From Chiloscyllium plagiosum (Eukaryota): a DNA stretch of 54,244 nucleotides. The notes under the pieces were generated by a model. The model did no database searches. It was not told the DNA's origin and worked only from the letters and a program-made list of their open reading frames with translations. The stretch covers positions 13,954,511 through 14,008,754 of the forward strand of contig NC_057719.1 in NCBI RefSeq assembly GCF_004010195.1, given 5' to 3'. Below are positions 4,023 to 53,595 of this stretch, piece after piece; positions within the stretch are counted from its first letter, which is position 1; every line of letters starts with the position of its first letter. A program made the translations under genes and the position numbers.

Positions 4023-4545
4023 AAGTTTGGGTGAAGATTTGTAGCTCGGGTGCTCATTGTTGTGGTTCTGTTCGCCGAGCTGGAAACAGCCACCCTCAGA
4101 CAACAACTCACCAGAACGAAGGACCCGATACCCAGCATGGGCAAAACTAATTTAGTGTACAAAATCCCATGCAAGGACTGCACAAAACACTATATAGGAC
4201 AAACAGGAAGACAGCTAACGATCCGCATCCATGAACATCAACTAGCCACGAAACGCCACGACCTGCTATTCCTAGTAGCCACACACGCAGATGACCAGCA
4301 ACATGGATTCGACTGGGACAACACTACCATTACAGGGCAAGCCAAACAAAGAACAGCCAGGGAATTCCTAGAAGCATGGCACTCATCCACAAACTCCATC
4401 AACAAACACATCGACCTGGACCCAATATACCGGCCACTACAGTGGACAGCTGAAACTGACAACCGGAAGCGGCAGAGACAGGCCACTATAAATGCCGGAG
4501 GAAACACCACAGAAGCGCTTCACAGGAGGCTCCCAAGCACTGAGG
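4023..4545 (+). mobile_element. Penelope-like family C fragment with GIY-YIG endonuclease and oppositely oriented 3' terminus
   Basis: ORF 4050-4562 has VYKIPC..C..HYIGQTGRQL.IRIHEH; 4023-4083 is the reverse complement of the terminus at 37323-37383; TSD ATGTATGTTCA (4012-4022, 4546-4556). Confidence 0.92.
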
Positions 4546-4594
4546 ATGTATGTTCAGTTTAAATTCAAAAGCGTTTCTTTGGATTACTCAAGTT

Positions 4595-4997: not shown

Positions 4998-6402
4998 GAC
5001 TGGAGGTCGGCAAACATGGTGCCACTGTTTAAGAAGGGCGATAAGGACAAGCCAGGGAACTATAGACCGTGAGCCTGACATCGGCGGTGGGCAAGTTGTT
5101 GGAGGGAATCCTGAGGGACAGGATGTACATGTGTTTGGAAAGGCAAGGACTGATTAGGGATAGTCAACATGGCTTTGTGCATGGGAAATCATGGCTCACA
5201 AACTTGATTGAGTTTTTTGAAGAAGTAACAAAGAGGATTGATGAGGGCAGAGCAGTAGATGTGATCTATATGGACTTCAGTAAGGCGTTCGACAAGGTTC
5301 CCCATGGGAGACTGATTAGCAAGGTTAGATCTCATGGAATACAGGGAGAACTAGCCATTTGGAAACAGAACTGGCTCAAAGGTAGAAGACAGAGGATGGT
5401 GGTGGAGGGTTGTTTTTCAGACTGGANNNNNNNNNNNNNNNNNNNNNNNNNNNNNNNNNNNNNNNNNNNNNNNNNNNNNNNNNNNNNNNNNNNNNNNNNN
5501 NNNNNNNNNNNNNNNNNNNNNNNNNNNNNNNNNNNNNNNNNNNNNNNNNNNNNNNNNNNNNNNNNNNNNNNNNNNNNNNNNNNNNNNNNNNNNNNNNNNN
5601 NNNNNNNNNNNNNNNNNNNNNNNNNNNNNNNNNNNNNNNNNNNNNNNNNNNNNNNNNNNNNNNNNNNNNNNNNNNNNNNNNNNNNNNNNNNNNNNNNNNN
5701 NNNNNNNNNNNNNNNNNNNNNNNNNNNNNNNNNNNNNNNNNNNNNNNNNNNNNNNNNNNNNNNNNNNNNNNNNNNTATTGGTCAGAGTATTGAGTACAGG
5801 AGTTGGGAGGTCATGTTGTGGCTGTAATGGACATTGGTTAGGCCACTGTTGGAATATTGCGTGCAATTCTGGTCTCCTTCCTATCGGAAAGATGTTGTGA
5901 AACTTGAAAGGGTTCAGAAAAGATTTACAAGGATGTTGTCAGAGTTGGAGGATTTGAGCTATAGGGAGAGGCTGAACAGGCTGGGGGTGTTTTCCCTCGA
6001 GCATTGGAGGCTGAGGGGTGACCTTATAGAGATTTATAAAATTATGAGGGGCATGGATAGGGTAAATAGACAAAGTCTTTTCCCTAGGGTCAGGAAGTGC
6101 AGAACTTGAGGGCATAGGTTTAAGGTGAGAGGGGAAAGATATAAAAGATACCTAAGGGGCAACTTTTCCATGCAGAGGGTGGTACGTGTATGGAATGAGC
6201 TGCCAGAGGAAGTGGTGGAGGCTGGTACAATTGCTACATTTAAGTGGCATTTGGATGGGTATATGAATAGGAAAGGTTTGGAGGGATATGGGCCGGGTGC
6301 TGGCAGGTTAGACTAGATTGGGTTGGGATATCTGGTCAGCATGGACGGGTTGGACCGAAGGGTCTATTTCCATGCTGTACATCTCTATGACTCTATGACT
6401 TT
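4998..6402 (+). mobile_element. CR1/HER1-type LINE (RT to 3' end), spanning an assembly gap
   Basis: RT motifs (NYRP.SLTS, DFSKAFDKVPH); 3' part closely similar to 402-1093; (CTCTATGA)n tail. Confidence 0.93.
5427..5775. other. Assembly gap (N run)
   Basis: Run of N. Confidence 0.99.
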
Positions 6403-8793: not shown

Positions 8794-9368
8794 TAATTTT
8801 ATTGTTTTTTTTAAAGTATTCATGGGATATTAGTATCCCTGGCTGGGCCATCATTTATTGCCCAGCACCAGTTTCCTACACCCAACCTGCAATGGGGTGA
8901 GGGTTAGGGTCTACAGAAGGTCTGTCGAGGGTGATGGGTTTTTTTTGTGTGTCAAAGACTGTGTCAGTTACTTTGAAAAACATTGTTGTTAACTTTTGTC
9001 TGTCTATTTAAATACTCTGGTGTCCATAAAATGAATGCCTTCCTTTCATTTTATGGCTTTAAGTTTAATGGAGAATTAATCATTATTGAGGATAGTGAGT
9101 AATTAGTTTAATTCTGCCTGTGTCTGAGCCTATCTACTACATATATCAAAGCAATACAGAAGGTATAGTTACTGTGCGACAATATCGCCTACCAACTGAG
9201 TCAATGAGAAGGAAAAGGTAGCCCCTGAAAACCATTTGTCTTAATTTCGTGTTGAACTAACATGTTAACTGCAGCTTATTTATATTCCTCTGATCTTTCA
9301 CTTGCCTACTTAACTTTGTATCACTAAATTTGGATATGATAGTATTTAAATAGATCATAGATAACCAA

Positions 9369-9593
9369 CTAGGAGGAAGTGAGGGCTGCAGACGCTGGAG
9401 ATCAGAACTTAAAAATGTGTTGCTGGAAAAGCGCAGCAGGTCAGGCAGCATCAAAGGAGCAGGAGAATCGACGTTTCGGGCATAAGCCCTTCTTCAGCCC
9501 TTCCTGAAGAACGGCTTATGCCCGAAACGTCGATTCTCCTGCTCCTTTGATGCTGCCTGACCTGCTGCGCTTTTCCAGCAACACATTTTTAAG
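9369..9593 (-). mobile_element. Penelope-like family A hairpin insertion (two hammerheads back to back)
   Basis: 90-bp inverted arms 9408-9497 / 9504-9593 with 1 mismatch; TSD CATAGATAACCAA (9356-9368, 9594-9606). Confidence 0.9.
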
Positions 9594-10224
9594 CATAGAT
9601 AACCAAGTCCCTAGTTCTGATCCTCATGATACCCATTGTGGAGCCTGCCAACTTAAAACTTTCTATTTGAATGAATGATTTTTATTGTCATGTGTCTTTT
9701 ACAGTGACAGGAATGGCAGAATACAGTAAAAGGCTTTTCCACTGTTGCCATTTTGAATGTTTCTAAGAATGAAAAGAGATAGAGCTTAAAGAGAATCCAT
9801 CAGTCCTGAGCCAGCTCATCACCAACGACGCTGTGCCACTATTTCTCCTTTGCTGCCTCGCTGCCAGACCTAACCAATGCCCAAATCGCCAATCCTTGGC
9901 CGCTATCTTTCGTCACTGGGCCTACCTCGCTGACGTCACCTCCACCAATGTAGCAGCCACTGATTCTAATGCCTGGGTCTCGTGCTCATCCCAGAAGAGT
10001 AAGGAAGGCCTCACTCAAGTCCACACTGAGATTCTTTACTGCTCTCTGAGTTCATGACAGGAACAAGAAGTAAATAAATAGGAAAGAAATAGTAAGAAAG
10101 GAAAGTGGGATGGTTGGAGCAGATGAGTCCCAGCTTAGGAGCCGTACTCTGCTGCCATCTTGATAATGTCCTAAGTGTTTTGGCTGTTCAGTTTCTGTCC
10201 ACACTCACATTAATCAGTGTTGAG

Positions 10225-10896: not shown

Positions 10897-11298
10897 GACT
10901 ATCACCTGATGAAGGAGCAGCGCTCCAAAAGCTAGTGCTTCCAATTAACCGTGTTAGACTATAACCTGGTTATGATTAGATTCCCTACAGTGTGGAAACA
11001 GGCCCCTCAGCCCAACACCAACTCTCTGAAGAGTAACCCACCCAGATCCATTTCCCTCTGACTAATGCACCTAACACTATGGGCAATTTAGCACGGCCAA
11101 TTCACCTGACCTGCACATCTTTGAAATGTGGGAGGAAACTGGAGCACCCAGAGGAACCCCACACAGGGAGAACATGCAAACGCCACACAGACAGATGCCC
11201 AAGGCTGGAATTGAACCTAGCCCCTGGCGCTGTGAGGCTGCATTGCTAACCACTGAGCCACTATGCTGCTCCTTGGGGTGCTGTGTGATTTTTAACAA
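10897..11298 (+). mobile_element. Penelope-like family B pLTR split by a SINE
   Basis: CTGATGAAGGAGCAGCGCTCCAAAAGCTA from 10906 (G-to-A in GAAA); sequence resumes at 11277-11296. Confidence 0.75.
10975..11272 (-). mobile_element. HE1-type V-SINE
   Basis: Full head-body-tail similarity to 13191-13492. Confidence 0.88.
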
Positions 11299-16148: not shown

Positions 16149-16222
16149 CTTAAAAATGTGTTGCTGGAAAAGCGCAGCAGGTCAGACAGCATCAAAGGAT
16201 ATGCAGTCCTCACTTTCTCCTA
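16149..16222 (+). mobile_element. 74-bp Penelope-like family A micro-insertion with inverted 5' part
   Basis: Inverted ~50 bp plus sense terminus GCAGTCCTCACTTTCTCCTA; TSD GGGATTCACTGATG (16135-16148, 16223-16236). Confidence 0.85.
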
Positions 16223-19929: not shown

Positions 19930-20412
19930 ACCACGGTGGCTCAGTGGTTAGCACTGCTGCCTCACAGGGACGCGGGTTCAATTCTTGCATCAGGCAACTG
20001 TCTGTGCGGAGTTTGCACATTCTCCCTGGGTCTGTGTGGGTTTCCTCTGGGTTCTCCGGTTTCCTCTCGCAGTCCAAAGATGTGCAGGTTAGGTAAATTG
20101 GCCATGCTAAATTACCTATACTGATCAGGGATATGTAGGTTAAGTGCATTAGTCAGGGGTAAATAAAGGGTAAGGGAAGGGGTCTTCGAAGGGTTGGTGT
20201 AGACTTGTTAGGCCAAAGGGCTTGCCTCTATACTGTAGGGAAGCTAATCTAATCTAGCCATGCTAAATTACCTATACTGATCAGGGATATGTAGGTTAGG
20301 TGCATTAGTCAGGGGTAAATATAGGGTAAGGGAAGGGGTCTTCGAAGGGTTGGTGTAGACTTGTTAGGCCAAAGGGCTTGCCTCTATACTGTAGGGAAGC
20401 TAATCTAATCTA
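19930..20412 (+). mobile_element. HE1-type V-SINE with tandemly duplicated 3' 156 bp
   Basis: 20101-20256 is repeated at 20257-20412 with 2 differences. Confidence 0.9.
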
Positions 20413-20661: not shown

Positions 20662-20975
20662 AAGGTAAAGGTAAAATAAAGTTACCATTGTCTTACCAGA
20701 TAGTAGGACTGCTCTCTCATTAGAGATAGAGAAAGAGAGAGAGAGAGAGAGAGGACTGCTGGTGATTCCTGATGAAGGGTTTTTGCCCGAAACGTCAATT
20801 TTCCTGCTTCTCGGATGCTGCCTGACCTGCTGTGCTTTTCCAGCACCACTCTAATCTACACTCTGATTTCCAGCATGTACAGTCCTCACTTTTGCCTGGT
20901 GGTGATTTAACCTGAGGGTCAGCATGCCTTAGGTGAAGGCTAAGGTTGAGAAGCCAAGTCCTCTATGGTAGCCCA
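20662..20975 (-). mobile_element. Third SINE family copy with (GA)n tract, interrupted by a Penelope piece
   Basis: Reverse-complement similarity to 47920-48125. Confidence 0.6.
20768..20895 (+). mobile_element. Penelope-like family A short copy beginning at the hammerhead
   Basis: CTGATGA(20769)-A-GGGT-TTTT-GCCC-GAAAC-GTC; TSD CTG(C/G)TGGTGATT (20756-20767, 20896-20907). Confidence 0.85.
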
Positions 20976-22089: not shown

Positions 22090-23600
22090 TTTTACTAGAA
22101 CTTCATTCATTGACCATAGAGTAACAGAAAATGATGAAGAAGGTAGTGCATTGGATGTTGTATGTATGAGCTTTCAAATGGATTTCATAAATCACATGAT
22201 AGCAAACCTGATGTCTTTAGGGTCAAAGAGCAGTGGCTAAGTGGATGAGAACATGATCAAGAATCCGGCAGCGAAGAGTAATGATGGATAGTTATTTTCC
22301 AGACCAGAGGGATGTGTGTAGTAGTGAACTGCAGCTCTTTGGTGCTCTTTCTCTCCATTTATCGCACATTGGATTTCGTCTTACCAGCCTTTGCAGGCGA
22401 TTGCAGCACTGGAATGTCACACCTAAAGGTATCAAAGAAGCTTCAAAAGTGGTGGGGGAGGGGGTTATGCACTAGAAACTGAACTATAATTCCCCCATCG
22501 GCATCTCAATCTGTGAGCATGATGTGAAGAGATGACAGCAGTCTGGGTGTGAGACACATGCGATTTTCAATGATACACAGAGACCGGGGTGAAAAGAAAG
22601 CTTCAGTGCTGGTCTGAATGGCCTGATGTCCCAGTGACAGTGGATGAAAACATAAAATTACTAAGATATATCAATAGAATGAATTAATTGGACAAATCTG
22701 TGACAACTTACAAACGTTTCGAAATGAAGGCAAATGTGAAGATATCCACTCTATCTTCTAAAAAAGGATTGGGATAGATCACCTTCAATATGGTGAAAAT
22801 CTGACCAGTGGATGTCTAAAGATGTTTGGAGATGGATGAACACAGATCTAAAAATATCTTCAACCATTACAGAAGTAATCATAAAGGTTAATGAAACATT
22901 GGACTTTATATTTCGAGGTAATGAGACAATGTATTTGAGCAATTTGAATTATCAGTAAACAAGAGAATGCTGAGTATTATAGAGGAACAGAGGGGTTCTG
23001 GAGCGTATGTCCACAGATCCCCGCAGGGAGCAGGGCATTTGGATAAAGTGGTTCAGCACGTACAGAATACTTGTCTTTCTTGTGTATAGCATTAAATACT
23101 AGAACAAGGAGGTTATGCTGAACCTATATGAGACACTAGTTAGACATAGGTTCTTGCACACTGTTCTGGTCACCCAACACCAGGTTATAGTCCAACAGGT
23201 TTAATTGGAAGCACTAGTTTTCAGAGCGCTGCTCCTTCATCAAGTGGTTCATCAGATGAAGGAGCGGCGCTCTGAAAGCTAGTGCTTCCCATTAAACCTG
23301 TTGGACTATAACCTGGTGTTGGGTGATTTTTAACATTGTACACCCCAGTCTAACACCGGCACCTCCAAATCATGTTCTAGTCACCACATTACAGGAAAGA
23401 AGCAACTACACAAGAGGTGTATCAAGCAAATTTACGACACAGTTACCGTTAATAGAGAAATTTCACTGAAAAAAGATTAGGTAGACGGGTTGGTTTTCTT
23501 TGGAACAGAGGAGGCTGAAGGGAGATTTTACCGAGGTGTTAAAATTTATTCAACTTCGGAAGGAAGCAAATTCTCCATTCATCCCAGGGTGCTGCAGAGA
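22090..23600 (+). mobile_element. Highly decayed CR1-type LINE fragments
   Basis: DEEGSALDVVCMSFQ remnant and 3' ORF2-like nucleotide similarity around 22980-23545. Confidence 0.5.
23175..23372 (+). mobile_element. Penelope-like family B hairpin insertion
   Basis: ~72-bp inverted arms (23170-23241 / 23255-23326); TSD TGTTCT(G/A)GTCACC (23162-23174, 23373-23385). Confidence 0.85.
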
Positions 23601-28245: not shown

Positions 28246-29107
28246 AATGATGCAACTGGAGAGCAATGGCTTGGTCAAAAGTGCTGTCTAAATGTAAATA
28301 ATTGTTGTTGCAGTATGTCGAGATATATCTCTTTGGTTACCTAATCTTCCAAATCGCTTTAAAATTCCAAGGCTGAGGGGAGGTAGGGAGGTGATTCAAA
28401 GTCTTTGCTCGTTTAATTCTCGTGCGTTCAACTCACAGATGCTGCTCCTTCGAGAATGACTGACGTGACTCAAAGGTGCCCTTTTATGTTAATTTCCCCA
28501 TACTAACCCGATATTGCATTTATGATTTGATGATCTCGGTTGCTATAGTGAACGAGATTAAAGAGAGGCGAGTGATCACATTGTACCAACAGAATGTCTA
28601 CCGGATCATTGAGAGCTGATAACATTCGAGGATTGTCAGTGAGTGTTTCTGTTGCCATCATTAACTGAGAGTGAAGCTCCAGACAGAATTATTGGCTCAG
28701 CCTCACTGTCCTGCATGTTAATGCATTATTTATTCTTTATAATATATCAGAGCTGCTTGATAACATTCTCCATCTGGATAGGAAAGGTTGCTATGTCAGT
28801 TTTGTATCATTTGCAAGTGATTTAAATACACCTGGCCCAATGCAACTAACCAGATTGTTTTGAAGGGTGAAAACAGACTGGGATTTTCAACATCTTCGCT
28901 TTCTGATGAGCCACAGGAAATAAAGCAATTCATGGCATTTAATTAACTGCAAGAAAGTTTAATCTTAGTGAACATCAGATTCCATCACACTTGGAAAAGG
29001 CAAGGAAAGAAAATTTTAAATTGTGTATTCCCTAGAACTGCCAAAGCCTTTCAAAGTTAATGAATGACTTTGTAGCTATTTGTTATGCTCAGCATAAGAA
29101 TTAGTCT

Positions 29108-29848
29108 TTCAGGAATGAGGAAAATGTGCCAAGCAGGCTAAGATAAAAGGTAGGGAGGAGGGACTTGGGGGAGGGGGGTTGGAAATGCGATAGGTGGAGG
29201 TTGGGTTGGTGGGGGGTGTGGACCTGATGAGGGAGCCACGGAGGGACTCTCAGGTCCACACCCCCCACCAACCAAACCTCCACTCCCGGCACCTTCCCCT
29301 GCAACCGCATGAAATGCAAAACTTGCGCCCACACCTCCCCCTTTACTTCCCTCCAAGGCCCCAAGGGATCCTTCCATATCTGCCACAAATTCACCTGCAC
29401 CTCCACGCACATCATTTACTGCATCCGCTGCACCCAATGTGGCCTCCTCTATATTGGGGAGACAGGCCGCCTACTTGCGGAACATTTCAGAGAANNNNNN
29501 NNNNNNNNNNNNNNNNNNNNNNNNNNNNNNNNNNNNAAATCCCTCGAACTCAGCACCGCCTTCCTAACCTGCAATCTTCTTCCTGACCTCTCCGCCGCCT
29601 ATCACCCTCACCTTATCACCCTCACCTTAACCTCCTTCCACCTATCGCATTTCCAATGCCCCTCCCCAAGTCCGTCCTCCCTACCTTTTATCTTAGCCTG
29701 CTTGGCACACTTTCCTCATTCCTGAAGAAGGGCTCATGCCCGAAACGTCGATTCTCCTGTTCCTTGGATGCTGCCTGACCTGCTGCGCTTTTCCAGCAAC
29801 ACATTTTCAGCTCTGATCTCCAGCATCTGCAGCCCTCACTTTCTCCTT
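29108..29848 (+). mobile_element. Penelope-like family A with GIY-YIG fragment, inverted 5' portion and intact hammerhead (N gap 29495-29536)
   Basis: CTSTHIIYCIRCTQCGLLYIGETGR; 29108-29200 is the reverse complement of ~29632-29727; CTGAAGA(29722)-A-GGGC-TCAT-GCCC-GAAAC-GTC. Confidence 0.9.
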
Positions 29849-29879
29849 ACTGTTTAAACCTGGAGTTTATATTTCTTTA

Positions 29880-30220
29880 AGAGTCCCTACATTGTGAAAG
29901 CAGACCATCGAGTCTTTAGTGACCCTTTGAAGTGTAGCCCACTCAGACATATCCCCCCCCCCCCAATAACTACCCTATCCCCTGCATATCCCATGGCTAA
30001 CCAACCTAGCCTGCACATCCATGGACATTATGGGTAATTGAGCATGGCCAATTCACCTGACCGGCACATCTTTGGATTGTGGGAGGAAACCGGAGCACCT
30101 GGACGAAACCCACACAGACATGGGGAGAATGTGCAAACTCTACACAAACAGTCACCCAAGGGTGGAACCGAACCCAGGTCCCTGGCGTTGTCAGGCAACA
30201 TTGCTAACTGTACCACCCCA
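29880..30220 (-). mobile_element. HE1-type V-SINE
   Basis: Head, V-domain and tail homology. Confidence 0.85.
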
Positions 30221-32551: not shown

Positions 32552-32768
32552 AGACAAAAAAACTGTAGATGCTGTTATCCTAAGCAGACAGGCAGGAGGC
32601 TGTAAGATCACAGCAAACCAGGCAGCATCAGGAGGTGGAGAAATTGACGCAGATCCCTTTACAACCACCCCCAGACCTGAAGAAGGATTAGACCAGAAAC
32701 GTCGACTTCTCCACCTCCTGATGCTGCTTGGCTTGCTGTGCTTTTCCAGCCTCCTGTCTGTCTACTCC
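32552..32768. mobile_element. Penelope-like hairpin (family A-related) with degenerate hammerhead
   Basis: Inverted arms ~32584-32649 / 32700-32765; CTGAAGA at 32677 and GAAACGTC at 32696-32703. Confidence 0.65.
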
Positions 32769-34567: not shown

Positions 34568-34960
34568 CTTTGAAAATGTTTAAGACTGAAGTGGCTAGAT
34601 TCTTGAGCAGCAAGGCTGTAAACAGTTATTGGGGACAGGGTGGAATGCAGAGTAATCGATCAACCATGATTTTGTTAAACAACGGAGCAGGCCTGAGCAA
34701 CCGAGAGACCTACTCATGCTCCTAATTCACATGGTCATGTGTAAAAGCGACATCCAGCCTCCTTTGAAAATGGATGAACAGGAAAATATCATCTATATGT
34801 ATTAAGATAAAAAGGCTAATTACATGAGACTCCTCAATCTGTCTCAAAGGAGCATTTAATAATCAGGCCAACAAGAGTAACAAGGATTTGGAGCTGCAAA
34901 CAATGGTGAGGTTAACAGTGATCCCAGTTATTGCAATGTAAATTGGATGGTTAAAAATCA

Positions 34961-35224
34961 TTTTCTGAAGATGGGCTTATGCCCAAATCATCGATTCTCC
35001 TGCTCCTTGGATTCTGTCTGGCCTGCTGTGTTTTTCCAGCACCACATTTTTCAAATCTGGTCTCCAGCATCTGCAGTCCTCACTTTCTCCTAGTTAAAAA
35101 ATCACACAACATCAGGTTATATCCAACACCTAGCACTTCCAAATAAAGCTGGTGGACTATAACCTGCTGTTGTGTGATTTTTAGCTTTGTCCACCCCAGT
35201 CCTACACCGGCTCCTCTACATCAT
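34961..35224 (+). mobile_element. Family A short copy (34961-35092) abutting a family B hairpin remnant (~35095-35224)
   Basis: Mutated hammerhead at 34965; near-duplicate GTTAAAAA(A)TCA at 34950-34960 and 35093-35104. Confidence 0.7.
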
Positions 35225-35304
35225 GTAAAATGGAGGCCTTTATCTTCTAGAAACTGAATACTAACAGTCTTTTGCCACCAAAATACATTGAATAGCATGG
35301 AGAT

Positions 35305-36513: not shown

Positions 36514-37383
36514 GTTGTGGTTCTGTTCGCCGAGCTGGGAATTTGTGTTGCAGACGTTTCGTCCCCTGTCTAGGTGACATCCTCAGTGCTTGGGAGCTTC
36601 CTGTGAAGCGCTTCTGTGATGTTTCCTCCGGCATTTATAGTGATTTGTATCTGCCGCTTCCGGTTGTCAGTTCCAGCTGTCTGCTGCAGTGGTCGGTATA
36701 TTGGGTCCAGGTCGATGTGCTTATTGATTGAATCTGTGGATGAGTGCCATGCCTCTAGGAATTCCCTGGCTGTTCTCTGTTTGGCTTGTCCTATAATAGT
36801 AGTGTTGTCCCAGTCAAACTCATGTTGCTTGGCATCTGAGTGTGTGACTACTAAGGATAGCTGGTCATGTCGTTTCGTGGCCAGTTGGTGTTCATGGATG
36901 TGTATCGTTAGCTGTCTTCCTGTTTGTCCTATGTAGTGTTTTGTGCAGTCCTTGCATAGGATTTTGTACATTACATTGGTTTTGCTCATGCTGGTTATCG
37001 GGTCCTTTGTCCTGGTGAGTTGTTGTCTGAGAGTGGCTGTTGTTTTGTGTGCTGTTATGAGTCCTAGTGGTCGCAGTAGTCTGGCTGTCAGTTTTAGGAC
37101 AGTTTTAGGCATGGCACTCATCCACAGATTCAATCAATAAGCACATCGACCTGGACCCAATATACCGGCCACTGCAGCAGACAGCTGGAACTGACAACCG
37201 GAAGCGGCAGATACAAATCACTATAAATGCCGGAGGAAACATCACAGAAGCGCTTCACAGGAGGCTCTCAAGCACTGAGGATGTCACCTAGACAGGGGAC
37301 GAAACATCTGCAACACAAATTCCCAGCTCGGCGAACAGAACCACAACAACGAGCACCCGAGCTACAAATCTTCTCCCAAACTT
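36514..37383. mobile_element. Penelope-like family C, inverted-duplication insertion with GIY-YIG fragment
   Basis: ORF 36570-37133 (-) is GIY-YIG; 241-bp inverted arms 36514-36754 / 37107-37347; TSD TGATGTAGACTCT (36501-36513, 37384-37396). Confidence 0.93.
36550..36589 (-). ncRNA. Type I hammerhead ribozyme motif, family C (second copy at 37272-37311 +, with GTC changed to ATC)
   Basis: GCA-CTGAGGA-T-GTC-ACCTAGACAGGG-GAC-GAAAC-GTC-TGC. Confidence 0.8.
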
Positions 37384-39503: not shown

Positions 39504-40791
39504 GCTCTTCAGAGTATCGCTACATTCTCAGTTGGAGCTGACCTTCAGCAGAAGCGAGGAAAAGTGAAAGCTTAATAAGTCCAATGCCAAGTTTAGTGGG
39601 AGTAGTTTGAGATCTAATCCTCGAACCAGTGTCTCACCTTTGCTCAGGCTTGAGTCAGCTAAAGAAGATGAAATGGTTCAGTAGTTCGATGAAGGCTTCA
39701 GGTAATCTGTGAGGAATGCAGCGTGGGTTAGCATGCTGTCTTTTCAGCTCTGCAAAATCTGGATGTGAACCCTATGAAGAAAGATGGATTAAAAATCATC
39801 TTTCTCTGCGCTTTGCAATATCCTTAACTGAAATGAGATCAGAAAGTGTCAGTATAATCTGCTGATAAGGAGCATTAAAATCATCAACTTCACTCAGAAA
39901 GGCCACAGGGATGCAGTTGGAGATAGTGTCCAGGTGCTGAAATTAAATTCCTTGGCCATGTTTATTATCTCTGTTTATTATATCTCGTAGATAAGATCCT
40001 GAATAGTCCTAACAGGGTAGAGCTGGAAGGAATGTTTCCCCTTTAAAGAGAATCAGGAACTAGTGGCCTCTGTTTAAATATCAGGGGCTCACCCACATAC
40101 AACAGAGATGAGATACAAGCTTTTGTCTCAGAAGGCCACGAGTATTTGCAATTCTTCTCCTGAAAATGTGAGGATATGGCCCACTGTATTGTGTGCCACT
40201 AATCACTGTGCTCAATGGGATTGGTTTCTGAAGACTGGAACTCAAATCTGGGCATCCTGGCCTCTGTGGGACAGTAGCAGTTGCATAGTATTCAATTTGC
40301 TTGGTATGTCTCCCACTCTATCAATACCATCAAACCCTTGATCAATGAAGAGTGAAGGAGGGTATGCCAAGGGCAGCACCAGGGCAGCACCAGGGATATT
40401 CCTAATAATAAGGTGTCAACCTGGTGAAGATATAAGACAGGACTACAGGATTACCTACATGCTAAACAATGGTAATGGTATGCTATAAATGAGTTAAAAA
40501 GATCTCACAACCAACATTTCCAATCTAAGCTCTATAGCCCTGTCACAACTAACAGCAAAGGAGGCTTCACTGGCCCTCAAAGATGCCCAGAGCATCAATG
40601 TAAAGGAGAGGGGGCTGAAGCATTTGCGCCCACCTTCAGCCAGAAGTGTCAAGCGGGTGATCTACCTTGGCCTCCGCCTGATTCAATTTACTCCATGTGA
40701 TGAGAAGGAACTGGAATTAGCAGAGGCGTTGAGTCCTGATTAAGTTCTGGCAGTAATACTGTGCTTTAGAGAAAGCAGAGTGGGAGAGTAC

Positions 40792-41104
40792 TTGCTGTGC
40801 TTTTCCAGCACCACTCTGATCTAAACTCTGGTTTCCAGCATCTGCAGTCCTCACTTTTGCCTAGTTGATTTTAACCTTACTGCGAATCCTCTTGCAAGGA
40901 TGCCTACCTTGAAGAAGTTCTCCTCCTCTCTCCACAAGAATCTCAGTGAGTCTCTCTCTCACTGCAACCCCCAGGTCATCTCCTCTGCCCTGAAGCTCGT
41001 CAATCATGTACTCTTTGCTACCTTCCTCCGCCCTCCTCTCTGACCTATCACCTCCATCCCCACCCTCATTCACCTATTGTACTCTTTGCTACCTTCCTCC
41101 ACCC
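40792..41104 (+). mobile_element. Penelope-like family A piece: pLTR end, probable ORF start, then rearranged pLTR
   Basis: pLTR end at ~40864 followed by ATG at 40900 (MPTLKKFSSSLHKNLSESLSHCNPQVISSALKL); 23-bp direct repeat 41007-41029 / 41078-41100. Confidence 0.65.
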
Positions 41105-41833: not shown

Positions 41834-42007
41834 TGTCAAAACGTGTGGCACTGGAAAAGCACAGCAGGTCAGGCAGCATCCCAGGAGTAGGAGAGTCGAT
41901 GTTTCAGGCATAAGCCCTTCATCAGGAATGCTGCTTGACCAGCTGTGCTTTTCCAGTGCCACACATTTCAATTCTGATCTCCAGCATCTGCAGTCCTCAC
42001 TTTCTCA
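41834..42007 (+). mobile_element. Penelope-like family A inverted insertion inside a second-family SINE (41795-42320)
   Basis: TSD TAG(T/C)AATCCACAA (41821-41833, 42008-42020). Confidence 0.82.
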
Positions 42008-43159
42008 TAGCAATCCACAACAGCAGCCAAATGATCTGGGTCAGGGGTTTGAATCCCACCATCTCAGATGATCCACTTAAAACCCAAAACTGGGAATACA
42101 ATGTCAACCAAGAAACTATTGTCGATTGTCATGAAAACCCATCTGGTTCACTGATGTCCTTTGGGGAAGGAAATCTGCCATCCTTTCCTCGCCTGGTCTA
42201 TTTGTGAGTCCAGACCAACAGCAACATGGTTGTCTCTTAGTTGCCCGTATGAAATGGTCTTGCAGGCAACAAATAGTGAACCTGCCAGCAATACCTACAT
42301 CCTATAAAAAATATTTTTTAAGAAAAAGCACCCACTCTCACAGGTCTCACTGAAGGATGCCAATTTCAATACTTAGCGAGAACTCGTTCGGGAAATGCTG
42401 ACCCTCACTCCATGGACTGCAGTGACTTGTCACCTCCTTCTCAAGGGCATTGTGGGATGGATGTTTAATGTCACAGTGCAGTTGATGCTGCTGAGAAAGG
42501 GGATGTAAATGCACCCCAGGGGATAAAGCCATTGCAATTGTGTTCTAGAGAAAATGTCATTAACCTGTCTTTAATGGGAACATAAGTCATCGTGTGAAAT
42601 GCCTATGTTAATGTTTTAATCGCTTCTTCCTAATTTTCTGCATTTCTCCAATCTGCCATCCTGAATTGAAATGACATTGAATCCCTTATGTTATTTCCTT
42701 TGTAGTTTAAATTTACTTTCAATCCACTTAATTTTCTGTTAATGATTCCTCTCAATGTTGAAAACCAGTTAACATAAGCCACCAGTTAAATAATTAAAGC
42801 TAAATATCTTCTGTTTCAAGTAATGAATGTCTCATTAAAGGGTGAATGTTTGTAGGATTCAGAGCCACGATTTGTCATGTCACTTGATTAATCATTCACC
42901 ACAAATTGATCTACCAATGACCAAGATTTAAGACCACAATTCTTTTATGTTCATCATTGTACCATCAATACTGTGGGAGGGATTCCAGCTACTCAAAATA
43001 ACCTTTCTGTCTTCTTGCGGTTGGTTGTGGGGGAATGAATGATTTAATAAATTAGTACAAATGCATTGCGTCTTCCCACAGAAACTTCATAAGGTGAATA
43101 AGTCAGCTGACCTCCTGAAAAATAAATGAAAGTGTACCAAAGCAGCTTTTATTCAGTGT

Positions 43160-43605
43160 AACAAAAACAGAAATTGCTGGAAAAGCTCAGCAGGTCTGAC
43201 AGCATCTTCAGAAATGTTTTCAATGTGAAACGTTCGCTCTGATTTCTCTCCACAGACCTGCTGAGCTTTTCCAGCAATTTCTGATTTTGTTTCTAATTTA
43301 CAGCATCCGCAATTGTATTGGTTTTTATTCTGTATTGTAAACTTGATAGCATCTACAGGCTGTTCAAGTAAAGTATGATTCCAGCTGTAACAACCACAGA
43401 GATTGCTGGAGAAATTCAGCAGTTCTGGCAGCAATTCCAGAAAAAAAAAGTCAATATTCTGGTATAACTCTTCTTTTGAACTTCAGAGTCATAGCAGACT
43501 CAAAATGTTACTTCTGTTTCTCTCTCTCCACAGATATTGCTCGCCTTTCTCCAGCATTTACATGTTTGTTTCAGATTCCCAGCATTCACAATATTTTGCC
43601 TTTGT
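43160..43605. mobile_element. Two adjacent degenerate family D-like Penelope hairpins
   Basis: Inverted CAGAAATTGCTGGAAAAGCTCAGCAGGTCTG / CAGACCTGCTGAGCTTTTCCAGCAATTTCTG; similar to 45590-45715. Confidence 0.6.
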
Positions 43606-43681: not shown

Positions 43682-43755
43682 GGCTCCATAGCTCAGTGGG
43701 TGAGAGCACTGGCCTTGTAAACCCGGGGTCGTGAGTTCAATCCTCACTGGGCTCT
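43682..43755 (+). tRNA. tRNA-Thr(TGT)-like, probably a pseudogene
   Basis: GGCTCCATAGCTCAG..CTTGTAA..GTGAG-TTCAATC-CTCAC; intact A/B boxes and T-arm, but C3:C70 and two anticodon-stem mismatches and no adjacent T4 terminator. Confidence 0.85.
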
Positions 43756-43849: not shown

Positions 43850-45592
43850 AAAAGTGGGAGTTTATTTCGGAAGCACTTGCTGATTGTCCCACTAAGGAAA
43901 GGTAAAGGACGGTAGGGTGAAAGAACCTTGCATGACAAGGGATGTGGAACATCTCATCAAGAGGAAGAAGGAAGCTTACTTAAGGTGGAGGAGGCAAGGA
44001 TCAGACAGGACTCTAGAGGATGACAAGATAGACAGGAAGGAATTGAAGAATGGACTTAGGAGAGCTACAAGGGTGCATGATAAAGCCTTGATGGGTAGGA
44101 CTAAGGGAAAACCCTAAGGTGTTCTACACTATGTGAGGAACAAGGGGATGGCCAGCATAAGGGTAGGACTGACCATGGATAGTGGAGGGAACTTGTGCCT
44201 GGAGTCGGAGGACATAGAGGAGGTCTTTAATGAATACTTTGCTTCAGTATTCACTGGCTTAGAGGGACTTTGACACTTCTGAGGACAGCATGATATACTT
44301 GTGCAGAGGGTCAGGCAGCATCCGAGGAACAGGAAAATCAACGCTTCGGGCAAAAGCACTTCATCAGGAATTGAAGTAGGGTGCCTGCAGGGTGGAGAGA
44401 TAAATGAGGTGGGGAGGGCTGGGGGAAGGTAGCAAAGAGTACAATGGGTGAATGGGGGTGGGGATGAAGGTGATAGGTCAGAGAGGAGGGTGGGGTGGAT
44501 CAGTGGAAAGGAAGATAGGCAGGTAGGACAGGTCATGAGGGCGGTACTGAGCTGGAAGATTGGAGCTGGGGTGAGGTGGGGAAAGGGGAAATGAGTAAAC
44601 TGGTGAAGTCCACATTGATGCCATGGGGTTGAAGTGTTCCGAGGCGGAAGATGAGGCATTCTTCCTCCAGGCGATGGGTGGTGAGGGAGCTGCGGTGAAG
44701 GAGGCCCAGGACCTGCATGTCCTCGGCAGAGTGGGAGGGGGAGTTGAAATGTTGGGCCACAGGGCGGTGGAGTTGATTGGTGCGGGTGTCCCGGAGATGT
44801 TCCCTAAAGCGCTCTGCTAGGAGGCGTCCAGTCTCCCCAATGTAGAGGAGACTATCTAGACTCTGGTTTCCAGCTTCTGCAGTCCCTACTTGATATGCTT
44901 GTACAGTTTGGTGTTAGGAAGGAGGATGAGCTGAAAGTTTTGAAAAACATAAGGAAAGGTAAAACCCCTGGACTAGGCAGATTATGCCCTCGGTTACTAC
45001 AGGAAGTGAGGGAAGAGATTGCGGCATGTTTGGTGATGATCTTTGTGTCCTCCCTGTCCATTGGAGTAGTGCCAAATGATTGGAGGGTGGCAAATACTAT
45101 TCACTTGTTCAAGAAAGAGAATAGGGATAATCCTGGGAAATACGGACCAGTCAGTGTTACGTTAGTGGTGGGCCAAAGTATTGGAAAAGATTCTAAGAGA
45201 CAGGATTTATGATTACTTTAAAAACCATAATTTGATTAAAGATAGTCAGCATGAGTTTGTGAGGGGGAGGTCATGCCTCACGAACCTTATTCAATTATTG
45301 AGGATGTGACAAAACATGTTGATGAAGGTAGAGCAGTGGATATGGTGTACATGGATTTTAGCAAGGTGTTTGATAAGGTTCCCCATGGTAGATTCTTTGA
45401 GAAAGAAAGGAGGCATGGGATACAGGGAAATCTGGCTCTCTGGATACAGAACTGGCTGGCCCACAGAAGACAGAGGTTGGTGGCAGATGAAAAGTACTCA
45501 GCCTGGAGCTCACCGAACATCAGTGATGTTTCGCAGGGATCGGTTCTGGGACCTCTGCGCTTTGTGATTTTTATAAATGACTTGGATGAGGA
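43850..45592 (+). mobile_element. CR1-type LINE internal fragment interrupted by a Penelope element
   Basis: ORFs 43917-44117, 44895-45212 and 45273-45617 (DFSKVFDKVPH, QGSVLGPL). Confidence 0.88.
44307..44890 (-). mobile_element. Penelope-like family A: inverted GIY-YIG C-terminus/pLTR plus short opposite-strand terminus (~44854-44890)
   Basis: AQHFNSPSHS..LIFRLGTLQPHGINVDF; TSD TGATAT(A/G)CTTGT(G/A)CAG (44291-44306, 44891-44906). Confidence 0.88.
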
Positions 45593-46856
45593 AGAGTCAC
45601 TGGACCTGAAACGTTAACTCAAATTTCTCTTCACAGATGCTGCCAAACCTGCTGAGCTTTTCCAGCAACCTCTGTTTTGTTTCTGTTTTACAGCATCCAC
45701 AGTTCTTTCGGTGTTTATTCACCACAAACGATAATGATTTGACCATTCATGTGAAGCCCCTACCTTACCTGTCGAATGGAAGCAGGTAGATAGGAGAAAA
45801 TTATGACCAGGTTTCTATACTTAACAAGACTATTTATTATAACTAAATACCAAACAGGGGCAGAACAAAACTATGATTTATTAAAAGGTAACTTTACTAG
45901 TTGAAATTCTAACCCCTTTAAAAATCAATAGGTACGTATATGGACAGTCCCAGACAAACAAAAATGTATTGGGTGGAGAATGAAAAACTGGGGAAACACA
46001 GTTCAATAGCACCAGTCCACAGAACTCATGAAATGTTACTTTCACTTCACAGGAATTCTGTTCTGCAAACCCTTTCTCCAGACTCTGTCACACAATTCAT
46101 TTGGGACACTGAATATGTCACTCCTTGTACCACCAATGCTGCTGTCTCCTTTCTCAGAGATGGTGGCGAGAGGGCGGCAAGAGATTTGTGATAGGTTGCT
46201 GCAGACCACATGGTACAGGGGGCATGCTCTTTCTTAAAGGTAAGCTGCCTCGCCGAGAAAACTGCTCAAAGGACTCACCCCCCAACGCAAATTCCTGCAA
46301 ACGGAATGTCAGGTCCACAGTGGAATCCAGACTGGTGGATGTGGCATAGGTGGGAAGGAGGAGAGGTATCATGTTCCTGCATGGGGTGAGGGGACGCTGA
46401 AAGGTCACATGCATAATGAAGTGGATAGAGGAAGCCTAGGAAAGCTAACTGCTTGTATCCACAAGGATTTACATCAGGAATGTTATCAATTACCTTTTTA
46501 CACCATAAGACCAAAAGATCATAAGATATAGGAGCATAGTTGGCCTTTGAGTCTGCTCTGCCACTTGATTGCAGCTGATGTGTTTCTCAACTCCATTCTC
46601 CCACCTTCTCCCCAGAACCCATGAGCCCTTTACTAATCAAGTTTCTCTGTTTTAATACACTCGATGACTTGGCCACTACAGCTTTCTGTGGCAATGAACT
46701 TTACAGATTCACCACCTTCTGGTTGAAGAAGTTCCTCCTCATCTCAGTTCTAAAGGGTCATCTCTACAATCTGAAGCTGTGCCCTCAGGTCTTAGTCTCT
46801 CCCATTAGTGGAAACATCTTCTCTACATCCATCTATCAAGGCCTCTCAGTATTCTG

Positions 46857-47087
46857 GGCTGAAAATGTGTTGCTGGAAAAGCGCAGCAGGTGAGGCAGCA
46901 TGCAGGGAACAGGAGAATCGACGTTTCGGGCATAAGCCCTTCTTCAGGAACTTTCCTCATTCCTGAAGAAGGGCTTATGCCCGAAACGTTGATTCTCCTG
47001 TTCCCTGGGTGCTGCCTGACCTGCTGCGCTTTTCCAGCAACACATTTTCAGTTCTGATCTCCAGCATCTGCAGACCTCACTTTCTCC
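46857..47087 (+). mobile_element. Penelope-like family A hairpin insertion
   Basis: 92-bp inverted arms 46859-46950 / 46960-47051; TSD CCTCTCAGTATTCTG (46842-46856, 47086-47100); both hammerhead cores intact. Confidence 0.9.
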
Positions 47088-47222: not shown

Positions 47223-47334
47223 GCTCTATTCCTGATGAAGGGCTTTTGCCCGAAACATCGATTTTCCTGCTCCTCTGATGCTGCCTGACCTACTGTGCTT
47301 TTCCAGCACCACGCTGATCTAAACTTTTGCCTAT
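47223..47334 (+). mobile_element. Penelope-like family A short copy beginning at the hammerhead
   Basis: CTGATGA at 47232; TSD ATTCCAAATGTT (47211-47222, 47335-47346). Confidence 0.82.
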
Positions 47335-49148: not shown

Positions 49149-49346
49149 AAAATCACACAACACCAGGTTGTAGTCCAACAGGTTTAATTGGAAGTACACT
49201 AGCTTTCGGAGCGACGCTCCTTCATCAGGTGATAGTGCGTCGCTCCGAAAGCTAGTGTGCTTCCAATTAAACCTGTTGGACTATAACCTGGTGTTGTGTG
49301 ATTTTTAACTTTGTACACCCCAGTCCAACACCAGCATCTCCCGAAT
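49149..49346 (+). mobile_element. Penelope-like family B hairpin insertion
   Basis: 71-bp inverted arms 49147-49217 / 49237-49307; TSD CACACAAAGATA (49137-49148, 49347-49358). Confidence 0.88.
49197..49231 (-). ncRNA. Minimal type I hammerhead ribozyme motif, family B
   Basis: CAC-CTGATGA-A-GGAGC-GTC-GCTCC-GAAAG-CTA-GTG. Confidence 0.82.
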
Positions 49347-49802: not shown

Positions 49803-52800
49803 TTCAGTACTGAGGGAGTGCTGCACTATCAGAGGGTCAGTACTGAGGGAGTACCACACTGTCAAAGGATCCATACTGAGGGAATGCCCACTGTCCCTTA
49901 GTACTGACCCTCTGTCAGTGCGGCACTCTCTCAGTACTGATCCGCTGACAGTGCGGTACTCCTTTAGTACTGACCCTCAAACAGTGCGGCACTCCCTTAG
50001 TATTGACACTCTGTCAGTGCAGGACTCCCTCAGTACTGACCCTCCAAAAGTGCAACACTCCTTCAGTACTGACCCTCTGACAGTGCAGCACTCTCTCAGT
50101 ACTGACCCCCTGACAGTGCAGGACTCCCTCAGTACTGACCCCCTGACAGTGCAGGACTCCCTTAGTATGGACCTTCTGACAGTGCGGCACTCCCTCAGTA
50201 TTGACACTCTGTCAGTGCAGGACTCCCTCAGTACTGACCCTCCAATAGTGCAACACTCCTTCAGTACTGATCCTCTGCCAGTGCAGCACTCCCTCAGTAC
50301 TGACCCTCCAATAGTGCAGCACTCCCTCAGTACTGACCCTCCAATAGTGCAGCACCCCCTCAGTATTGACCCTCAGAAAGTGCAGGACTCCCTCAGTACT
50401 GATCCTCTGACACTGCGGCACTCCGTCAGTACTGACCCTCCAATACTGCAGTACTCAGTACTGATCCTCTGACAGTGCAGCACTCCCTCAGTACTGATCC
50501 TCTGGTAGTACAGTACTCCTTTATTACTGACCCTCTGTCAGTGCGGCACACCCTCAGTACTGATCCTCTGACACTGCGGCACTCCGTCAGTACTGACCCT
50601 CTGACTCCTTTAGTACTGATCCTCTGACAGTGCAGCACTCCCTCAGTACTGACCTTCTGTCACTGCAGCACTCCCTCAGTACTGATCCTCTGACAGTGCT
50701 GTACACCTATATTACTGACCCTCTGTCAGTGCGGCACTCCTTCAGTACTGATCCTCTGACAGCGCGGTACAACTTTAGTACTGACCCTCTGACAGTGCAG
50801 CACTCCCTCAGTACTGACCATCTGTCAGTGCAGGACTTCTTCAGTACTGACCCTCCAATACTGCAGTACTCAGTACTGATCCTCTGACAGTGCAGCACTC
50901 TCTCAGTACTGACACCCTGACAGTGCGGTACTCCTTTATTACTGACCCTCTGTCAGTGCGGCACTCCCTCAGTACTGATCCTCTGACAGTGCGGTACTCC
51001 TTTAGTACTGATCCTGTGACAGTGCGGCACTCCCTCAGTACTGATCCTCAGACAGTGCTTACTCCTTTATTACTGATCTTCTATCACTGCGGCACTCCCT
51101 CAGTACTGATCCTCTGACACTGTGGCACTACCTCAGTACTGATCCTCTACTCCCTCAGTACTGATCCTCTGACACTGTGGCACTACCTCAGTACTGATCC
51201 TCTGACAGTGCATTACTCCTTTAGTACTGACCCTCTGACAGTGCATTACTCCTTTAGTACTGACCCTCTGTCACTGCGGCACTCCCTCAGTACTGATCCT
51301 CTGACAGTGCGGCACTCGCTCAGTACTGAACTTCTGTTACTGCGGCACTCCCTCAGTACTAATCCTCTGACAGTGCGGTACTCATTTAGTACTGACCCTC
51401 AGACAGTGCGCCACTCCCTCAGTACTGACCCTCTGTCAGTGCATGACCCCTCAGTACTGACCCTCTGTCAGTGCAGGACTCCCTCAGTACTAACCCTCCA
51501 ATACTGCAGCAATCAGTACTGACCCCCTGACAATGCAGCACTCTCTCTGTACTGACCCGCTGACAGTGCGGTACTCCTTTATGACTGACCCTCTGACAGT
51601 ACGGCACTCCCTCAGTACTGATCCTCTGACAGTACGGTACACCTTTTGTACAGACCCTCTGACAGTGCGGCACACTCTCAGTACTGATCCTCTGTCAGTG
51701 CGGTATTCCTTTATTACTGACCCTCTGTCAGTGCGGCACTCCCTCAGTACTGATCCTCTGACAGTGCGGTACTACTTTAGTTCTGATCCTCTGACAGTGC
51801 GGCACTCCTTCAGTACTGACCCTCTGTCAGTGCGGTATTCCTTTATGACTGACCGTCTGACAGTGCGGCATTCCCTCAGTACTGATCCTCTGACAGTGCA
51901 GTACACCGTTAGTACTGACCCACTGACAGTGCGGCACTCCCTCAGTACTGACCCTCTGTCAGTGCGGTATTCATTTATTACTGATCCTCTGACAGTGAGC
52001 ACTCCCTCAGTACTGTCCCTCTGTCAGTGCAGTACTTATTTATTACTGACCCTCAGACAGTGCGGCACTCCCTCAGTACTGATCCTCTGACAGCGTGGTA
52101 TTCCTTTAGTACTGACCCTCAGACAGTGCGGCACTCCCTCAGTACTGACCCTCTGTCAGTGCAGTATTCCCTCAGTACTGACCCTCTGACATTGCAGTAC
52201 ACCATTGTACTGACCCCCTGACAGTGCCGCATTCCCTCAGTTCTGACCATCTGACAGTGTAACACCACCTCATACTGACCCCCTGCCAGTGCCACACCCC
52301 CTCAGTTCTGTCCATCTGACAGTCCCCTGCAGTACTGACCCACTGACAGTGCAGCACTCCCTCAGTATTGACCTCCTGACAGTGCAGCACTACCTCAGTA
52401 CTGACCCCCTAACAGTGCCGCACTCCCTCAGTTCTGATCATCTGACAGTCCCCTGCAGTACTGACCCACTGACAGTGCAGCACTCCCTCAGTACTGACCC
52501 CCTGACAGTGCAGCACTACCTCAGTACTGACCCCTAACAGTGCCGCACTCCCTCAGTTCTGATCCTCTGACAGTGTGGTACTCCCTCAGTGCTGGCCCTC
52601 TTACAGTGCTACACTCCCTCAGTGCTGAGCCTCTGACAATACGGCGCTACCTTAGTACAGACCCTCTGACAGTCCAGCATTCCTCTGCATTGATCCATTA
52701 TCTGACCATCTGACAGTCCCCTGCAGTACTGACCCACTGACAGTGCAGTACTCCCTCAGTACTGATCCACAGACAGTGCGGTACTCCCTCAGTACTGATC

Positions 52801-53595
52801 CTCTGACAGTGCGGCACTCCTTCAGTACTGATCCTCCGACAGTGCAGGAGTCCCTCAGTACTGATCCTCTGACAGTGTGGTACTGCTTCAGTACAGACCC
52901 TCCATCATTTCAGCACTCCCTCAATTTCCCTCTGATAGTGCAGAGCTCCCTCAGTACTGACCCTCTGACAGTGTAGTGCTCCCTCAATACTAAACCTCTA
53001 ACAGTGTGGCACTCCCTCAATACTGACCCTTTAACAGTGTTGTACTTCCTCAGTAGTGACCCTCCATCAGCGCAGTGCTCCCTCAGTACAGACAATCTGA
53101 TAGTGCTATACTCCCTCAGCACTGATCCTCTGACAGTGCGGTACTCCCTCAGTACTGACCCTCTGTCAGTGCAGTACTCCCTCAGTACTGACCCTCTGAT
53201 AGTGCAGTACTCCCTCAGCACTGATCCTCCGACAGTGCGATACTCCCTCAGTACTGATCCTCTGACAGTGCGGCACTCCCTCAGTACTGATCCTCTGACA
53301 GTGCAGTATTCCCTCAGTATTGATCTTCTGACAGTGCGGCACTCCTTCAGTACTGATCCACCGACAGTGCGGTACTCCCTCAGTACTGACCCTCTGACAG
53401 TGCGGTACTCCCTCAGTATTGATCCTCTGACAGTGTGGTACTCCCTCAGTGCTGGCCCTCTTACAGTGCTACCCTCCCTCAGTGCTGAGCCTCTGACAAT
53501 ACGGCGCTACCTTAGTACTGACCCTCTGACAGTACTGCACTCCCTTGGTATTGACCCTGTGATTGTGTAGCACTCCCTCAGCACTAACCCTCCAA
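49803..53595. repeat. 33-bp tandem satellite (consensus approx. CACTCCCTCAGTACTGACCCTCTGACAGTGCGG), roughly 110-115 units
   Basis: Direct inspection; 11-residue periodicity (HSLSTDPLTVR) in the ORF track. Confidence 0.97.

Follow-up and report, generated by a model that had tools for sequence, protein, structure and literature searches.

An inverted, 5'-truncated copy with a tail of 30–40 bp at one end only is described as typical of Penelope-like elements (PLEs), even of those without canonical hammerheads (Craig et al., 2021, PMC8557442). In the account of such units by Arkhipova et al. (2013, PMC3846280), head-to-head inverted pLTRs, a tail, target-site duplications (TSDs) of 8–10 bp and palindromes at the junctions are described, and antisense self-priming is proposed. 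In the insertion experiments with purified PAc (Poseidon from Anolis), both strands are cut and extended, a dimer is predicted, insertion proceeds normally with a dead ribozyme, and the tail seen in genomic copies is bounded by two internal starts of reverse transcription (Frangieh et al., 2024, PMC11167929). The minimal hammerheads of metazoan PLEs occur mostly as solo motifs from truncated elements, with pairs on opposite strands 100–700 bp apart (Cervera and De la Pena, 2014, PMC4209133); sharks are not mentioned in the main text of that paper. Non-LTR retrozymes, which like the copies described below are non-coding, hammerhead-bearing and pLTR-derived, are set out in their preprint as head-to-tail tandem units (bioRxiv 10.64898/2026.07.22.740005), whereas the copies here are head-to-head or single: we found no head-to-tail hammerhead array of at least two units in the window, and a few head-to-tail joints elsewhere in the genome contigs.

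The window, a stretch of 54,244 nucleotides from Chiloscyllium plagiosum, contains many short insertions of this kind, whose layout is largely known and ordinary for PLEs. What remains as novel is that copies stop at the 5' edge of the ribozyme, where the RNA perhaps starts. A genome rich in such stubs is a large natural record of the sites at which PLEs prime and stop, in a mechanism that has been only partly worked out, and the stubs themselves are prone to being mislabelled as MITEs.

A hairpin made of two Penelope-like end-pieces

The hairpin at 9356–9606 consists of two PLE end-pieces lying head to head between 13-base target repeats, and is no MITE. Its anatomy (Table 1) is exactly that given in the preliminary description, with 90-bp arms carrying one mismatch, a 6-nt loop, a 13-bp TSD and a 39-nt unpaired end. 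The paired arms match at 89 of 90 positions, the fold (z = −22.8) was equalled by none of 200 shuffles, and a 13-mer match such as that of the TSD has a chance of about 3e-5 over 40 × 40 (1,600) offsets. Counted, like all arm offsets, from base 1 of the CUGA core (position 0), the full left arm runs from 0 to +128 and the right arm from −3 to +89; both are one repeat end, each read from the centre outwards, so the unit is head to head. The same tail terminates single-arm copies at 20766, 34957 and 29719. The 6-nt joint repeats left-arm sequence close by and resembles a templated slip, from which it may derive.

The putative hammerhead of the tailed arm also has a palindromic helix III and the cut triplet GUC, and is missing the 5' strand of helix I; its core, the unpaired base before helix II and the palindromic helix III are those of the minimal type I hammerheads of metazoan PLEs (PMC4209133). 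The motif was located in the pLTR by a motif scan and lies below the Rfam gathering threshold: no hammerhead reached the gathering score, and the sole Rfam match in the window was to a tRNA-like sequence at 43682.

Table 1. Positions of the insertions discussed and of the parts of the 9356–9606 hairpin (arm ends in nt from position 0)
Feature	Position	Strand	Details
Left TSD copy	9356..9368		13 bp; exact match (13/13) to 9594-9606
39-nt PLE tail	9369..9407	-	unpaired; +90 to +128 from hammerhead core; spans proximal-to-distal 3' ends
Tailed arm	9408..9497	-	pLTR end-piece; 0 (core base 1) to +89; pairs with 9504-9593
Hammerhead motif, putative	9470..9497	-	minimal type I, motif scan; CUGAAGA core, 4-bp helix II, GAAA
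Joint of both 5' ends	9498..9503		6-nt loop = 3 extra bases + initial 3 bases of right arm
Short arm, tail-less	9501..9593	+	-3 to +89
Right-arm hammerhead motif, putative	9504-9531		G-to-C at 9512 disrupts helix II pair 1
Right TSD copy	9594..9606		exact match to 9356-9368
Family A inversion	46857..47087		5' ends -3 (short arm), -13 (tailed arm); TSD 12-15 nt
Family B inversion	23175..23372		5' ends -3, about -4; TSD 13 nt, 1 mismatch
Family B inversion	49149..49346		5' ends -8 (short), +11 (tailed); TSD 12 nt
Family D inversion	32552..32768		tailed arm to +23, short arm -27 or beyond; TSD 17 nt, 1 mismatch
Family C inversion	43160..43330		5' ends +22, +49; full hammerhead in neither arm; TSD degenerate, 11 nt, 1 mismatch
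Family A inversion, arms non-overlapping	16149..16222		+39..+89 reversed, then +106..+128; TSD 14 nt
Family A inversion (site 41818)	41834..42010		5' ends -5 (short), +44 (tailed)
Family A inversion, arms non-overlapping (site 44303)	44307..44890	-	TSD 16 nt, 2 mismatches
Family E inversion	36514..37383		242-bp arms, 35-nt tail, perfect 13-nt TSD; own hammerhead 170-500 nt downstream of the joint
Family E inversion, arms non-overlapping	4023..4545		TSD 11-14 nt
Long family A copy, reference	29103..29849	+	linker + GIY-YIG start 29252-29494, pLTR, hammerhead 29722, tail
Single-arm family A copy	20768..20895	+	starts -4; TSD 12 nt, 1 mismatch
Further single-arm family A copies like 20768..20895	47223-47334; 34961-35093

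To which element do these end-pieces belong? Upstream of the repeat, the longer family A copies pass first through a pyrimidine-rich repeat and next into a reading frame. At 29252–29494 this frame encodes a CxxxxCxxC linker followed by the beginning of a GIY-YIG domain, and at 44557–44850 the end of one. These two pieces match residues 765–899 of a 902-aa RT + GIY-YIG protein (E 3e-27 and 5e-27; 59% and 52% identity), and the best named relatives are cartilaginous-fish proteins; compared directly with Pfam, the short pieces gave weak matches (E 0.06–0.07). The CX2-5CxxC linker ahead of the endonuclease, defined for the Neptune clade in PMC8557442, is present in the 29252–29494 frame (protein P0001), and by this motif family A is classed as a Neptune-type PLE. 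Since longer copies of the same repeat follow a GIY-YIG endonuclease with a Neptune-type linker, the hairpins are PLE end-pieces, which supports the Penelope pLTR origin suggested earlier. A tblastn search of the window with the homologues found the endonuclease part only, the RT being present in homologues P0014 and P0015; no RT domain of the family A element lies within the window, and Pfam searches of 24 window ORFs gave no PLE domain at E 0.01 and three RT matches unrelated to these copies. The six sites listed in the preliminary description belong to four repeat families (A, B, C and D), not to one, and a fifth family, E, with its own GIY-YIG remnant and hammerhead motif, occurs at 4023–4545 and 36514–37383. 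Pattern scans for additional copies found none in viral contigs and none in metagenome contigs.

GIY-YIG sequence upstream of the pLTR, a one-sided tail of 30–40 nt, a head-to-head truncated copy and one TSD, features of EN+ PLEs, are present. Published EN+ PLE units (Arkhipova et al., 2013, PMC3846280; Craig et al., 2021, PMC8557442, Fig. 2), as there described, have the same head-to-head truncated copy and one-sided tail, and are also alike in having one TSD per unit, a pLTR hammerhead and palindromic joints.

At 40790–41104 a family A copy continues beyond the tail into a candidate 5' UTR and a candidate ATG at 40900, followed by scrambled pLTR pieces; the 40-aa frame that begins there had no match to 12 homologues. 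This ATG lies about 35 nt past the tail, whereas the ORF of PAc, in its published description, starts in helix II (PMC11167929).

Census of insertions in the window

Hand curation of this one window gave 25 insertions, 14 of them with two arms (each with one TSD) and 11 with a single arm. Their 5' ends are uncertain by a few bases at 23175, 30598 and 45586, and the counts leave out 43385–43605, a 21-nt fragment at 11277, the left arm at 29103 (which has no TSD) and the scrambled pLTR pieces at 41007–41104. All five sites named earlier beside the 9356 hairpin proved to be real two-arm insertions with a one-sided tail and a TSD (degenerate at 43160), and eight further inverted insertions (at 1345, 4023, 16149, 30598, 35094, 36514, 41818 and 44303) had been missed.

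Two fixed 3' ends and variable joints mark these insertions. All 14 inversions pair a tailed with an untailed arm, and in 12 of them the 3' ends of the two arms differ by 35–44 nt, the other two being primed further in. The 5' ends of the arms are offset from one another by 1–566 nt, with 14 different joints among the 14 inversions, and the TSDs (10–17 nt, median 12.5, n = 14) are unrelated in sequence. Compared with rotifer PLE units, where TSDs of 8–10 nt are described (PMC3846280), the TSDs are longer and most units measure only 75–240 bp, so that the palindrome is the whole insertion. Hammerhead pairs here lie 3–20 nt apart, against the 100–700 bp given in PMC4209133.

Several copies have features of their own. 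The long arm of 44307–44890 carries the GIY-YIG C-terminus (44557–44850), the pLTR and a hammerhead motif. The long copy at 29103–29849 has a complex inverted 5' side, where a TSD was looked for and not found: after a 34-bp fold-back in the ORF remnant (29194–29283) the sequence jumps to a pLTR piece in inverse orientation, whose 3' end lies at hammerhead +4, again with no TSD found. Untailed arms at 4540–4548 and 29103–29110 end (that is, were primed) within the hammerhead core, at +8 and +4, one of them with TSD microhomology. At 34950–35226 a family A stub with an 11-nt TSD is nested within an older inverted insertion of family B, at its left end. A canonical TATA box occurs in family E at 37222–37230, about 53 nt upstream of the hammerhead core. 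At 43385–43605 two old and dissimilar family C-like arms (47 of 102 positions alike) lie head to head at the hammerhead edge without a TSD; they are possibly two insertions or a mixed-template pair, which, if counted, would be one more edge-centred pair.

Copies tend to stop at the 5' edge of the hammerhead

Seventeen of 39 5' ends lie at −15..+11, against 3.9–4.3 expected at a constant stop rate (scan-corrected p 0.0001–0.003; the zone was picked after the data had been seen); a count on the first 12 inversions had led to a like result. The hammerhead edge is a real 5' stop, whether the copy is inverted or not: 5' ends fall in the zone in 7 of 11 single-arm copies and in 10 of 28 inverted arms (Fisher p 0.16). 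Such a pile-up is not stated for the published PLE units in the relevant parts of PMC3846280 and PMC8557442.

This bears on the earlier suggestion that, in the clearest cases, the symmetry centre lies at or just 5' of the ribozyme core. At four of the six sites then listed (9356, 46857, 23175 and 49149; Table 1) both arms indeed end there, while at 32552 and 43160 they do not. These four are the only inversions among the 14 with both arms in the edge zone (none of the eight additional ones has this form), and all came from the earlier list, since a search for neat hairpins favours them. A special link between inversion and hammerhead finds no support: single-arm copies end there too, and in 10 of 14 inversions at least one arm ends elsewhere. 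Inversions centred on the hammerhead are a side effect of this general 5' stop and of the selection of the neatest cases. One observation does favour the preliminary description: when one arm is at the edge its partner tends to be too (pair table 4, 1, 1, 8), a coupling not expected under fully independent stops, with a one-sided p of 0.023 for a window chosen post hoc and of 0.28 for −10..+6.

Ribozyme cleavage at +28 was considered as a source of the 5' ends and rejected, 4 of 39 ends lying in +18..+30 without a pile-up.

Origin of the two arms

We put at roughly three in four the probability that the hairpin arose, dead on arrival, when the ribozyme-bearing end of a Neptune-type PLE was inserted by two-strand priming, separate stops and end joining, with no need of a ribozyme dimer. 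The element's protein would nick both target strands, 13 bases apart, and each nicked strand would prime its own cDNA, one from the distal of the two internal starts (+128), which would account for the tail, and the other from the proximal one (about +89). Each cDNA would stop on its own, most commonly at the hammerhead 5' edge, and the cDNA 3' ends would be joined via microhomology or a short templated slip. Two stops at the edge would give a near-perfect hairpin that mimics a MITE, stops elsewhere a lopsided or non-overlapping inversion, and failure of the second priming a single-arm copy. For overlapping arms one stretch would have to serve twice as template, whether through displacement along a single RNA, through use of both pLTRs of a tandem transcript, or on two RNAs.

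In three of the 14 inversions (16149, 44303 and 4023) the arms do not overlap, which is the layout expected from one RNA primed twice, and for these one-RNA twin priming suffices; that at 16149–16222 has the layout with neither hairpin nor hammerhead. In the L1 twin priming that Ostertag and Kazazian are said to have described in 2001, the second target strand reportedly primes on the RNA, so that the 5' part is inverted, the joint carries microhomology or inserted bases, and the arms do not overlap. That layout fits the three inversions just named; the arms overlap in the other 11, unlike those of L1; presumably the second start has a fixed place some 39 nt away from the first, which leads to double copying of one stretch. 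In seven of the 14 the short arm reaches at least 5 nt further 5' than the tailed arm, each arm having sequence absent from the other, so that neither arm there is a plain copy of its partner. Together with the two-strand extension observed in vitro (PMC11167929), this speaks for cDNA priming from both target strands, as had been supposed. PAc, as described by Frangieh et al. (2024, PMC11167929), offers the same two-strand cutting and extension, a hammerhead about 110–150 nt upstream of the starts, a tail bounded by two internal RT starts and a start in an AC-rich stem-loop; it differs in belonging to another clade (family A having the Neptune-type linker), and the model in that paper includes no inverted products.

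Might one arm nevertheless have been copied from the other? A cDNA or antisense RNA might fold near its end and be copied back, the endonuclease trimming one tail, and this, although unlikely, is the alternative that fares best. Antisense self-priming was proposed for rotifer PLEs from the palindromes at head-to-head joints (PMC3846280), 'EN-mediated resolution' of the tail has been suggested (PMC8557442), and seven of the 14 inversions are also compatible with such folding. Each of the 10 arm pairs compared comes from a single subfamily, as would two RNAs of one locus; the youngest pairs are closest to each other (1/90 at 9356 against 7% for the nearest other window copy, 2/69 at 49149 against 10%), the older being uninformative. 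At 23170–23330 a G present in both arms, and lacking in other family B copies, agrees with the base of the target where the short arm ends; this could reflect arm-to-arm copying or a rare source variant; 49149 shows the opposite. Against folding stand the unique sequence on both arms in half of the inversions, the three without overlap and the offsets of up to 566 nt, which would need large loops and extra trimming, and the two RT starts that coincide with the tail ends in vitro (PMC11167929).

The route offered in the preliminary description, in which two RNAs held together by the hammerhead dimer supply one arm each and the centre is fixed at the ribozyme, is improbable. Minimal PLE hammerheads do look made for dimer action (PMC4209133), and the four inversions with both arms at the edge exceed independence for one window (p 0.023). 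However, helix III and the cut site (+18..+30), where the RNAs would cross, receive both ends in none of 14 joints, single-arm copies stop at the edge no less frequently (7 of 11), the centre lies elsewhere in 10 of 14 inversions, and none of the 10 arm pairs is of mixed subfamily (a comparison of low power). Moreover, N-terminal-EN PLEs without canonical hammerheads are described with the same inverted layout (PMC8557442), and ribozyme-core mutants insert unchanged in vitro, although pairing is not necessarily broken in them (PMC11167929).

That the hairpins formed after insertion, by an adjacent second insertion or by repair or gene conversion, is very improbable: PLEs are able to target their own pLTR (PMC11167929), and one insertion at 34961 is nested within the 35094 element, but a single TSD surrounds both arms in 14 of 14 inversions, which always pair a tailed with an untailed arm. 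A true MITE or self-propagating hairpin family, suggested by near-perfect terminal arms, a TSD and the very high copy number of the repeat as a whole, is scarcely credible when every joint is different, the ends are asymmetric, the hairpin sequence comes from a GIY-YIG retroelement, of which it is the 3' end, and offsets of 1–566 nt and TSDs of 10–17 nt take the place of fixed breakpoints and a constant short TSD, so that the earlier reading as a MITE lookalike was sound.

A possible RNA start at the hammerhead edge

Why should copies stop at the hammerhead edge? Our preferred guess is that this edge is where the template RNA has its start. Tentatively, and with rather more doubt than confidence, we suggest that the 5' end of the PLE mRNA lies a few bases before the hammerhead, and that, with the RT priming internally, most events copy nothing but the 5' leader before running off its end. 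Run-off on both target strands would then give a near-perfect hairpin and run-off on one a 130-nt stub, while a jump from the end of one RNA to the start site of another would give head-to-tail joints that rebuild pLTRs. If true, one rule would cover the tail, the inversion, the pLTR and the flood of solo minimal hammerheads, and the formation of pLTRs and inverted copies would have a simple model that is open to testing. Hints in this direction are a stop rate that is flat beyond −10, head-to-tail joints from +85..+93 to −5..0, the coupling of stops between arms, and a hexamer conserved at −34/−36/−36 in three diverged subfamilies. A further hint is an initiator-like motif, a possible start site, whose A falls at −4, the position at which loose ends accumulate; the motif is of low information, and helix I pairing may hold that A. 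A cap-derived extra G was not evident, by eye, at the 5' joints of four single-arm copies with a TSD. In Drosophila virilis, according to PMC2377424 and PMC4209133, helix I is separated from the start, which lies upstream, by 46 nt and an intron of 75 nt, so that an RNA start at the hammerhead edge is as yet no general rule. Other possible causes of the stop are a block by protein or structure, or an endonuclease nick at an ATT motif.

Three DNA runs and one raw RNA run (polyA, single-cell), four of 24 listed, were aligned at 85% identity to 29545–29880 of the long copy. This reference is matched by 85,000–92,000 contigs per DNA run, a number that refers to the whole repeat. Of the matching reads in the RNA run, 94% continue into unlike sequence, with both orientations present; RNA reads with the repeat are dispersed copies inside host transcripts. 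No pile of RNA ends indicative of self-cleavage was reported for this run, which is of a kind unable to reveal it, and no RNA record containing 9100–9800 was listed, which speaks neither for nor against its transcription. Read depth in the RNA run falls from 1821 at +38 to 1156 at +13, 894 at +4, 229 at −10 and 222 at −27, a loss of 9% per base across +4..−10 and of near zero just beyond. The other core variant accounts for only 248 of the 894 reads at +4; the drop is thus larger than subfamily divergence could cause, and most of it consists of real ends. Loose ends lie before −4 in three of four runs, among the rows listed (226, 204 and 173), counts that are inflated by the divergence of subfamilies upstream of −4. 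Among the 15 listed of 84 joints, nine are strand switches, six of which join −5..+9 to +39..+93, and three are head-to-tail (+85..+93 back to −5..0); none of the nine strand switches has both sides at the edge, and symmetric hairpins may be poorly retained in contigs. The 3' end of the repeat is sharp, at +125..+128. As regards A-to-I editing, the RNA run had 28 A>G places against 8–9 in the DNA runs, with all change types raised and reads drawn from many loci.

Transcripts of the hairpins and other features of the window

The expectation that either strand would yield a long dsRNA hairpin containing a ribozyme is true as far as the sequence goes. A transcript of either strand makes the antisense arm first, however, so that a duplex of about −180 kcal/mol would hide the ribozyme, and the right arm has lost its first helix II pair (at 9512). 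Transcribed hairpins would put 70–90 bp of dsRNA into host transcripts as silent duplexes, not as working ribozymes.

The tail ends of families A and D (29838–29849, 9369–9385 and 32552–32570) are pyrimidine tracts closing with AG; in three A subfamilies another AG of this kind precedes the core by 21–25 nt. Arm ends were considered as 3' splice sites and this was rejected, pyrimidines plus AG being found in families A and D and absent in B and E.

Among sequences of other kinds in the window, reverse transcriptase (RVT_1) fragments of other LINE-like elements lie at 2425–2982, 5066–5425 and 45255–45614, and a SINE-like sequence at 20101–20412 contains a 156-bp tandem duplication, 98% identical. 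The tRNA-like sequence at 43682–43755 (Rfam RF00005, 47.6 bits) is a tRNA gene or the head of a SINE, and a 33-bp satellite of about 114 copies occupies 49804–53592, with a short inverted block at 49804–49892.
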